The notes under the pieces: model-generated | What the model saw: the letters and a program-made list of their open reading frames with translations, nothing else | Told to the model about the DNA's origin: nothing | Databases searched by the model: none | IMG/VR virus record: IMGVR_UViG_3300028898_000252 | Span: 1-29,945 of that record | DNA length: 29,945 bases | Strand: one strand, 5' to 3' | Source of the DNA: a virus | Lineage: Duplodnaviria; Heunggongvirae; Uroviricota; Caudoviricetes | In this document: one piece after another, positions 11,906-23,541 of the stretch | Layout: each line of letters opens with the position of its first letter | How positions within the stretch are numbered: the first letter of the stretch is position 1 | Translations under genes and position numbers: made by a program

Positions 11906-12526
11906 TTACCACCTGTCTCGAAAATCAATCATAAGACAAGGAACAAATTCTTCTGTCCCAGGATACTTGCGAACCTCTAACGTATATTCCATTACAAACT
12001 TATGATTTTGCACAAACCAATTTCTAACAATGTCCATAACTTCTTCGAGATTTTCAGAAACATTCTCTCCAGCCACTGCAAAATCGTGAGATGATCGACC
12101 CATTGTTTTAACATTGTTAACAACTTGTTGGGTCAACAAGTCTCGAATAAATTTATTGGCGATTTTTACAGCATCAAACTTTTCTGGTTGAGGTTTTCGA
12201 GAAAATTTCAAAGTTTCGTAATAACTGCCTTTGGTGATTTCAACGTCTGAATCATTCCCCAAAAACTCTTTGAGTTTTTCTGGTTGCTTGTCAAAATTTT
12301 GACTGTGAAAGCTTACTTCTGAATTAAATGCTGTCTTGTTTAATTCAACAACAGTTGGTTCAATAAGTTTGAAATGAAAAGAGTAATATGGTTTTATTCC
12401 TTTTTCTGCAAAATGTCCTAAAATATCTTGAACTTTTCCTTTAAAAAACCCAACCGTGTGGGTAGATTTCCCTTCCGCATCGCCTTCTGTTGTGACAAGC
12501 CACAGATTCATTTCTGAGTTTTTCAT
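11906..12526 (-). CDS. Hypothetical protein
   Basis: Start moved to MKNSE (12526) behind AAAGGA; the track start lies inside a tRNA. Confidence 0.8.
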   Translation of the reverse strand: MKNSEMNLWLVTTEGDAEGKSTHTVGFFKGKVQDILGHFAEKGIKPYYSFHFKLIEPTVVELNKTAFNSEVSFHSQNFDKQPEKLKEFLGNDSDVEITKGSYYETLKFSRKPQPEKFDAVKIANKFIRDLLTQQVVNNVKTMGRSSHDFAVAGENVSENLEEVMDIVRNWFVQNHKFVMEYTLEVRKYPGTEEFVPCLMIDFRDRW

Positions 12527-12553
12527 TTGGAATTTTTCCTTTGTTTGATGTTG

Positions 12554-12627
12554 TAGGCATGAATGGATTTGAACCATTGACTTCCCCGTTATAAGCAGGG
12601 CACTCTAAACCGCTGAGTTACATGCCT
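12554..12627 (-). tRNA. trnI: tRNA-Ile(UAU), no encoded CCA
   Basis: AGGCATG-TA-ACTC-AGCGGTTTA-GAGT-G-CCCTG-CTTATAA-CGGGG-AAGTC-AATGG-TTCAAAT-CCATT-CATGCCT-A; anticodon TAT. Confidence 0.93.
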
Positions 12628-12639
12628 GTTGAGTTTTGT

Positions 12640-12999
12640 TTATCTAACCAAAAACTCTGCAAAAAATTCTACTCCTTTTTCTCTAACAAACTCTGTATAT
12701 TCAATTCTCGTGGCGTCAATTAAAACCGTGGGTAAATAAGCACCACTAGCTAGTTTATCTTGAAGTTTCTTAATTGCAAGAGTATACCGATCAAGATAGT
12801 TAGATTCAATAATTTCATTTGAATCATATTGGGATAATCCAGTACCATCAGGTCCATGAGATAAATTAGATTCAAATAATCTTTCTTCTTTGCAAAGAAA
12901 AAGAAAATCTGCTCCGTTATGGACACAAGCCATATACAAAGCTTTGTCATCCAATTTTTTTATAAATTCCATTGCTCTTTCGAATTCGCGTGATCCCAT
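12640..12999 (-). CDS. Hypothetical protein between two tRNAs
   Basis: 119-aa ORF with AAAGGA RBS. Confidence 0.8.
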   Translation of the reverse strand: MGSREFERAMEFIKKLDDKALYMACVHNGADFLFLCKEERLFESNLSHGPDGTGLSQYDSNEIIESNYLDRYTLAIKKLQDKLASGAYLPTVLIDATRIEYTEFVREKGVEFFAEFLVR

Positions 13000-14723: not shown

Positions 14724-14798
14724 TGGTAGTCTGCCGCGGATTTGAACCACGAACTGCTCCCTTATCAAGAGAGAACTCTACCCTTGAGTTAGCAGACT
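14724..14798 (-). tRNA. trnI: tRNA-Ile(GAU) with encoded CCA
   Basis: AGTCTGC/GCAGACT acceptor, CTCTC-TTGATAA-GGGAG anticodon arm, CGTGG-TTCAAAT-CCGCG T arm, ACCA end. Confidence 0.93.
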
Positions 14799-14854: not shown

Positions 14855-14882
14855 AGTATAATCACCCGACCGTCTGTGTCAA
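14855..14882 (-). promoter_or_regulatory. Promoter TTGACA-N16-TATACT
   Basis: Near-consensus hexamers upstream of tRNA-Ile(GAU). Confidence 0.75.
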
Positions 14883-23419: not shown

Positions 23420-23454
23420 TTTATTTCTTTTCTCTTTTTGGTTTATTGTTTTAG

Positions 23455-23541
23455 AGGATAGCACAGGATTCGAACCTGTGGAACTCGTTAGAGTTCAGAA
23501 GTTTTCTAGACTTCCGCCTTAAACCGCTCGGCCAGCTATCC
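23455..23541 (-). tRNA. trnS: tRNA-Ser(AGA), long variable arm, no encoded CCA
   Basis: GGATAGC-TG-GCC-GAGCGGTTTAA-GGC-G-GAAGT-CTAGAAA-ACTTC-TGAACTCTAACGAGTTCC-ACAGG-TTCGAAT-CCTGT-GCTATCC-T; anticodon AGA. Confidence 0.9.

Follow-up and report, generated by a model that had tools for sequence, protein, structure and literature searches.

A phage tRNA-Ile with a gene-encoded UAU anticodon, probably a TilS-independent reader of AUA codons

Isoleucine tRNA genes with a UAU anticodon have already been reported in phages. Limor-Waisberg et al. (2011) found tRNA-Ile(TAT) in several cyanomyoviruses and in no cyanobacterium (PMC3152331), and the S-CREM1 paper (2023) says the same of S-CREM1 (PMC9964418); in these cyanomyoviruses the tRNA is missing from the host tRNA set and stands among other U34 tRNAs for A-ending codons. 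T4-type phages carry a tRNA-Ile(CAU) as AUA decoder, with a C34 that needs the host TilS (Nolan et al. 2006, PMC1524935). As to bacteria, nine species without tilS are known, and Mycoplasma mobile uses an unmodified tRNA-Ile2(UAU), together with an adapted IleRS and ribosome, as a natural TilS-independent decoder of AUA (Taniguchi et al. 2013, PMC3575796). In B. subtilis, a G34U mutation of tRNA1-Ile suppresses a tilS deletion: the unmodified U34 on the Ile1 body reads AUA strongly and AUG weakly, without lysidine (Kohrer et al. 2014, PMC3919564). For a phage tRNA-Ile(UAU), our literature search gave no published measurement of charging or of decoding.

The window analysed here, 29,945 bases long, corresponds to bases 1-29945 of one 390,884-bp virus record with 32.9% GC, bounded by direct terminal repeats and with a completeness rating of 100%. 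ARAGORN finds 21 tRNA genes in the whole genome, including two UAU copies, one Ile(GAU), one CUA suppressor and a single CAU gene (32430-32499); four tRNA genes lie within the window, all on the minus strand. The features discussed below are, in the window:

12554..12627, minus strand: tRNA-Ile(UAU) copy 1 (ARAGORN and Rfam), 74 nt, with A1-U72 and A73, without encoded CCA.
12640..12999, minus strand: 119-aa ORF (from the ORF list), co-directional and upstream of copy 1.
11906..12526, minus strand: 206-aa ORF, co-directional and downstream of copy 1, with an ATG at 12526 after AAAGGAA-N8 (read from the sequence).
14727..14798, minus strand: tRNA-Ile(GAU), reader of AUU and AUC (ARAGORN, 14724-14798; Rfam 53.1 bits), CCA encoded.
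14855..14882, minus strand: sigma70-type promoter-like site TTGACA-16-TATACT (pattern match, 11/12), about 55 nt upstream of tRNA-Ile(GAU).

A sequence-only reading of the window had placed a tRNA with a UAU anticodon at 12554-12627, giving no strand. The gene is there, on the minus strand: ARAGORN calls a tRNA-Ile(tat) at 12553-12627, and Rfam RF00005 matches end to end from 12627 to 12554 with 67.1 bits (gathering score 29, E 9e-13), filling the full model (1-71) with four regular stems and no non-canonical pair flagged. The RNA reads AGGCAUG-UA-ACUC-AGCGGUUUA-GAGU-G-CCCUG-CUUAUAA-CGGGG-AAGUC-AAUGG-UUCAAAU-CCAUU-CAUGCCU-A. Its acceptor stem is AGGCAUG/CAUGCCU, its anticodon loop C32 U33 U34 A35 U36 A37 A38, and its variable loop has 5 nt (AAGUC) with no second arm; the canonical cloverleaf, the A1-U72 pair and the AGGC start described in that reading are thus borne out by the Rfam match and the acceptor stem. 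The wobble position is U34, thus neither C34, the TilS substrate, nor G34. The bases 3' of A73 are CAA, so that CCA is absent from the gene. A CAT or GAT misread as TAT was the proposed objection to this anticodon. The same loop is found in independent samples, from three metagenomic relatives (L147, JGI 3300010338; L146, Logan SRR24742819; L155, WBZO01133698.1), and TAT is therefore no sequencing slip.

How does this gene compare with the described systems? Like the cyanomyovirus tRNA-Ile(TAT), it is a plain-length UAU tRNA of a phage with a gp23-type capsid; unlike it, it has a paralogue in the same genome, and it shows no close sequence kinship with the cyanomyovirus genes. The B. subtilis suppressor has the same combination of an Ile(GAU)-type body and U34, and is the best functional analogue for an origin in the GAU lineage; in contrast to the phage gene, it arose on the chromosome by selection in the laboratory, its U34 is proven to be unmodified, and the IleRS that serves it is known to be of Arg type. 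With M. mobile it shares a genomic UAU, but there the tRNA co-evolved with the IleRS (Arg865) and the ribosome, whereas the phage tRNA depends on what the host supplies. The T4-type tRNA-Ile(CAU) is a phage-borne AUA decoder of the same role in a T4-like genome; it differs by its C34, and the present phage has U34 and, its single CAU gene (32430-32499) aside, no gene comparable to that Ile2-type one.

Relatives were sought with the downstream protein. Its homologues, P0037 (93% identity) and P0038 (67%), occur on three metagenomic contigs, two of which extend far enough upstream, and both of these have a tRNA-Ile(tat) in the same position. A metagenome scan in which the anticodon was left free gave one further relative, L155, also with TAT. 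Relatives come from wastewater samples (JGI 3300010338, SRR24742819 and SRR32119647). In IMG/VR, the search with the downstream protein gave no relative, megablast and blastn of the region against GenBank phages gave no close DNA relative, and the anticodon-plus-T arm of copy 1 has no match in IMG/VR, in GTDB (185,579 species genomes) or in GenBank phages. Between the phage and L147, 73 of the 74 positions of the tRNA are identical (98.6%), against 74.7% identity in the downstream gene and 66.7% in the 300 nt upstream. In the four clean sequences of the family, all 84 stem cells pair (84/84), and 7 of the 21 pairs changed on both sides, with changes in all four stems, versus 0 to 1 in slid controls. 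The anticodon loop and the pairs C4-G69, U12-A23 and C29-G41 are invariant across the four. Although the family is small, its pattern agrees with that of a functional tRNA. It gives clean evidence of purifying selection, since the tRNA stays nearly identical where its flanks diverge, its stems change in a compensatory way and its IleRS identity pairs do not vary. Copy 1 is a real tRNA gene, under selection and of isoleucine type.

We consider it most improbable that copy 1 is instead a tRNA-like element that is decaying or does not decode, and that serves, for instance, in processing, in recombination or as a decoy. This scenario could draw on the lack of an encoded CCA, on the overlap of the called downstream ORF with copy 1, and on the tRNA-Tyr of the same phage (13022-13104), which scores below the Rfam gathering score. 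But the cloverleaf of copy 1 is perfect at 67 bits, its sequence is 98.6% conserved where the flanks retain about 70%, and each of the four stems has undergone compensatory changes while neither the anticodon loop nor the identity pairs vary. Concerning the called overlap, gene callers stretch the downstream ORF to 12577 (223 aa), with an ATG inside copy 1, while a start at ATG 12526 gives 206 aa and no overlap; the start is over-extended likewise in the relatives (221-224 aa). The tRNA-Tyr(GUA), called by ARAGORN on the minus strand, has a long variable arm and may be a non-canonical tRNA.

Next to copy 1, the stop codon of the 119-aa ORF lies 12 nt ahead of the 5' end of the tRNA, and the 3' end is 27 nt from the probable ATG (12526) of the downstream ORF. 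The latter matches PHROG 7661 and 12401, of unknown function; the 119-aa ORF has no Pfam or PHROG match. A consensus scan gave no strong promoter-like site between the 119-aa ORF and copy 1, and the total of promoter-like sites in the region is not above that in shuffled sequence. Given the ORF stop 12 nt upstream and the lack of a promoter-like site of its own, copy 1 is probably cut out of a polycistronic transcript. The window also holds a tRNA-Ser with an A34 anticodon (AGA) at 23454-23541 on the minus strand (Rfam 52.4 bits). An A34 outside Arg(ACG) is unusual in bacterial-type tRNA sets.

The question arises as to which amino acid such a tRNA would carry. The genome holds a second gene with the same anticodon, outside the window:

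311715-311791 (L124:716-792), minus strand: tRNA-Ile(UAU) copy 2 (Rfam 73.1 bits).

Copy 2 has G1-U72 and an encoded CCA, and is 77% identical to copy 1; the tRNA-Ile(GAU) of the window is 73% identical to copy 1. Both UAU copies present A73, A35, U36, A37, A38, C4-G69, U12-A23 and C29-G41, and these positions match the determinant set of E. coli IleRS (PMC9976931), position 34 and G16 of the D-loop apart. The E. coli set asks for G34 or lysidine-34, and copy 1 has U at this position. In the D-loop, the E. coli set has G16, D20 and D21. Copy 1 has AGCGGUUUA there and copy 2 has AGUCGGUUA, with a pyrimidine in the place of G16 and a U at 20/20a, the numbering of the extra bases being ambiguous. 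We also prepared a profile HMM for each isotype, using 531 phage tRNAs that lie on other contigs; anticodons were masked and all UAU genes left out. In this crude, sequence-only test (18 training sequences), copy 1 scored 51.1 bits with Ile(GAU) and 28.6 with the next profile, Val; copy 2 scored 63.3 bits with Ile(GAU) and 44.5 with the next, Lys. In GenBank, copy 2 comes closest to Ile(GAU) genes from phages and from Listeria (85%), and short blastn of copy 1 against GenBank phages returned only generic Ile(GAU), Asn and Val tRNAs. The suggestion that the body derives from the Ile(GAU) lineage is thus supported by the crude masked-profile test (51.1 versus 28.6 bits), the AGGC start being by itself non-diagnostic.

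The two copies appear not to have evolved separately. An element of roughly 90 nt upstream of copy 2 is kept in L155 and L146. L155 resembles copy 2 in its acceptor stem, its CCA and its upstream element, and copy 1 in its D and anticodon arms; because of this mosaic, we take copies 1 and 2 to be paralogues that have exchanged sequence. L146 (455-575) begins like copy 2, with its upstream region and the 5' strand of its acceptor stem, and continues like copy 1, with its tRNA body and the downstream gene; an A7-C66 mismatch results. We infer that it is probably an assembly chimera across a 42-nt stretch common to the paralogues in that lineage, and less likely a real recombinant.

AUA demand was estimated from codon counts in 415 ORFs that do not overlap and have 100 codons or more. 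AUA ranks 15th among the codons in use: it accounts for 23.5 of every 1000 codons and for 31% of those that specify Ile, and it occurs in 394 of the 415 ORFs. One gene departs from this pattern:

128360-130261 (L126:1462-3363), minus strand: major capsid gene, gp23 type (analysed for codon usage).

In the capsid gene, AUA falls to 3.2 per 1000 (6% of Ile codons) and AUC makes up 48%, versus 31% AUA and 12% AUC genome-wide. In this gene, the most expressed one, AUA thus seems to be selected against at the level of translation; since AUA is nearly avoided there, the capsid gene does not rely on the UAU tRNA.

The complete phage genome was also searched for the enzymes that such a tRNA would need. 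It contains no TilS (PF01171, TIGR02432), which the sequence-only reading had advised checking, no IleRS-class or other class-Ia synthetase (PF00133), no CCA-adding enzyme (PF01743) and no MnmG/GidA. It must therefore be the host that matures and charges the tRNA. No lysidine (TilS) step is needed, because U34 is encoded in the genome. In the pathway that we propose, copy 1 would most likely be transcribed together with the neighbouring early-type ORFs, released by the host RNase P and 3' processing enzymes, and supplied with CCA and with isoleucine by two further host enzymes, the CCA-adding enzyme and IleRS; it would give the phage extra AUA-decoding capacity. That the tRNA is expressed, processed and charged, how its U34 is modified and how it tells AUA from AUG are here inferred from the gene. 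With these sequence data, we put at about 0.8 the probability that the tRNA-Ile(UAU) is a functional, phage-encoded elongator that decodes AUA independently of TilS.

The proposal that an AT-rich phage would in this way read AUA without the host TilS thus stands in part: AUA is heavily used, U34 is encoded and the phage has no TilS. It missed the hurdle of charging. E. coli-type IleRS (Trp905) charges UAU tRNAs poorly, and Arg-type enzymes accept them (PMC3575796), and no phage IleRS would step in; if the host IleRS is of the E. coli type, the UAU tRNA could be inefficient. A host enzyme that accepts U34 would have Arg or Lys in the place of E. coli Trp905, or be a eukaryote-type IleRS. A different outcome of the same peculiarities would be that charging or use is ambiguous, by insertion of Ile at AUG or charging by another synthetase than IleRS, mistranslation being then the function. 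The M. mobile tRNA-Ile(UAU) indeed fails to tell AUA from AUG on E. coli ribosomes (PMC3575796). But MetRS requires C34 and ValRS requires C36 (PMC9976931), the body is of Ile type, and the B. subtilis U34 suppressor binds AUG weakly in cells that grow normally (PMC3919564); we give this idea next to no credence.

A modification of U34 might be another way to restrict reading to AUA, and the phage encodes a candidate enzyme:

About 322321-323430 (L156:1042-2151), minus strand: MnmA, tRNA 2-thiouridine(34) synthase, full length (NCBIfam NF001138).

The match scores 324 bits, for a cut-off of 284. MnmA is rare in GenBank phages: tblastn found it in 25 of 50,697 records, most of them resembling bacterial fragments, with Microcystis phage MaAM05 as the clear case. 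The present protein groups with metagenomic sequences, on contigs that reach 295 kb, in a clade that appears to belong to phages. On two related phage-like contigs (L160 and L161, 1077-2180), an RNA ligase gene (PF09414) lies about 8 kb from the MnmA homologue. Our literature search found no paper on a phage MnmA. The clients of the enzyme are likely the phage Lys(UUU), Glu(UUC) and Gln(UUG) tRNAs. If it also thiolated the U34 of both UAU tRNAs, the resulting s2U34 would read AUA and leave AUG alone, a solution to the AUA/AUG problem that would be new and would do without lysidine; we hold this to be highly unlikely. A general link between MnmA and UAU tRNAs was considered and rejected: MnmA is found neither in the 38 viral records examined that carry a UAU tRNA, 14 of which are 90% complete or more, nor in five capsid relatives, MaAM05 has MnmA and no plain UAU tRNA, and on the related contigs no tRNA lies within 10 kb of MnmA.

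The benefit of the tRNA may also be seen less as extra capacity than as independence from, or replacement of, host components that host or phage removes during infection: tRNA-Ile2 or TilS activity, tRNAs in general through decay, or tRNAs cut by anticodon nucleases, U34 being kept as it needs no host modification. This overlaps with the preferred explanation. The phage has no TilS; its two UAU copies have different transcription contexts, copy 1 in a string of ORFs and copy 2 with its own conserved upstream element and CCA; and it invests in tRNA upkeep by encoding MnmA, whose homologue on related contigs has an RNA ligase gene nearby. All of this would suit such a role. On the other hand, we found no known defence that targets tRNA-Ile2 or TilS, T4-like enterobacterial phages manage with a CAU-type, TilS-dependent tRNA-Ile (PMC1524935), and the sequence holds nothing that separates independence from plain codon supplementation. 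Ile tRNAs go unmentioned in an eLife paper that deals with anticodon nucleases and phage tRNAs. We regard independence as the main benefit as unlikely, and retain the TilS-independent supplementation of AUA decoding as our explanation.

Which host would supply the enzymes is suggested by few clues. The nearest capsid proteins are those of the uncultured huge phage LR756508.1 (43% identity) and of Flavobacterium phage immuto (41%). The likeness to a Flavobacterium phage is weak as a host clue, because the sigma70-type promoter-like sites argue against relying on it: the canonical TTGACA-16-TATACT sits uneasily with the Bacteroidota host that the nearest capsid relative would suggest. For a GC-rich SPFH gene, GTDB genomes gave no relative; the best homologues lie on metagenomic contigs, probably of phages. 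The MnmA homologues below 45% identity come from scattered phyla and give no host call. One of the contigs with both the MnmA homologue and the RNA ligase belongs to a bin, NCBI assembly GCA_029550385.1, and this assignment might point to the host.

The sequence-only reading had presented genomic UAU isoleucine tRNAs as rare exceptions. This is correct for cellular bacteria (PMC3575796) and does not hold for phages, as seen in IMG/VR, S-PM2, LR756508.1 and the published cases (PMC3152331, PMC9964418). A scan of IMG/VR, with a pattern that combines a plain UAU anticodon loop and a T arm 3' of it, gave at least 119 stretches; among the matches listed, ARAGORN called a tRNA(tat) in 109, and A73 was present in 110 of the 111 phage UAU tRNAs that could be parsed. 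Within these same 111 among the matches listed, 45 have a G1-U72 wobble pair and 38 a U30-G40; with the anticodon masked, a crude profile test placed 41 closest to Ile(GAU), 31 to Lys and 10 to Met/Ile2. This spread suggests that phage UAU tRNAs have several independent origins. The huge phage LR756508.1, the nearest published one, and cyanophage S-PM2 each carry a UAU tRNA. In a sample of ten cultured tRNA-rich phages, S-PM2 was the only one with a plain UAU tRNA (1/10), and T5, KVP40, Syn9 and S-RSM4 were among the nine without; the UAU tRNA is thus not a general need of AT-rich phages.

The present gene is therefore an ordinary member, of plain form, of a set already reported, and by itself it carries small weight: one more phage on a long list of those with a UAU tRNA-Ile. 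The puzzle that it poses is common to all phage UAU tRNAs, which are poor substrates of E. coli-type IleRS and can misread AUG, and yet are kept. If the type of the host IleRS (Arg versus Trp at the wobble contact) limits their use, UAU tRNAs could become a marker of host range.
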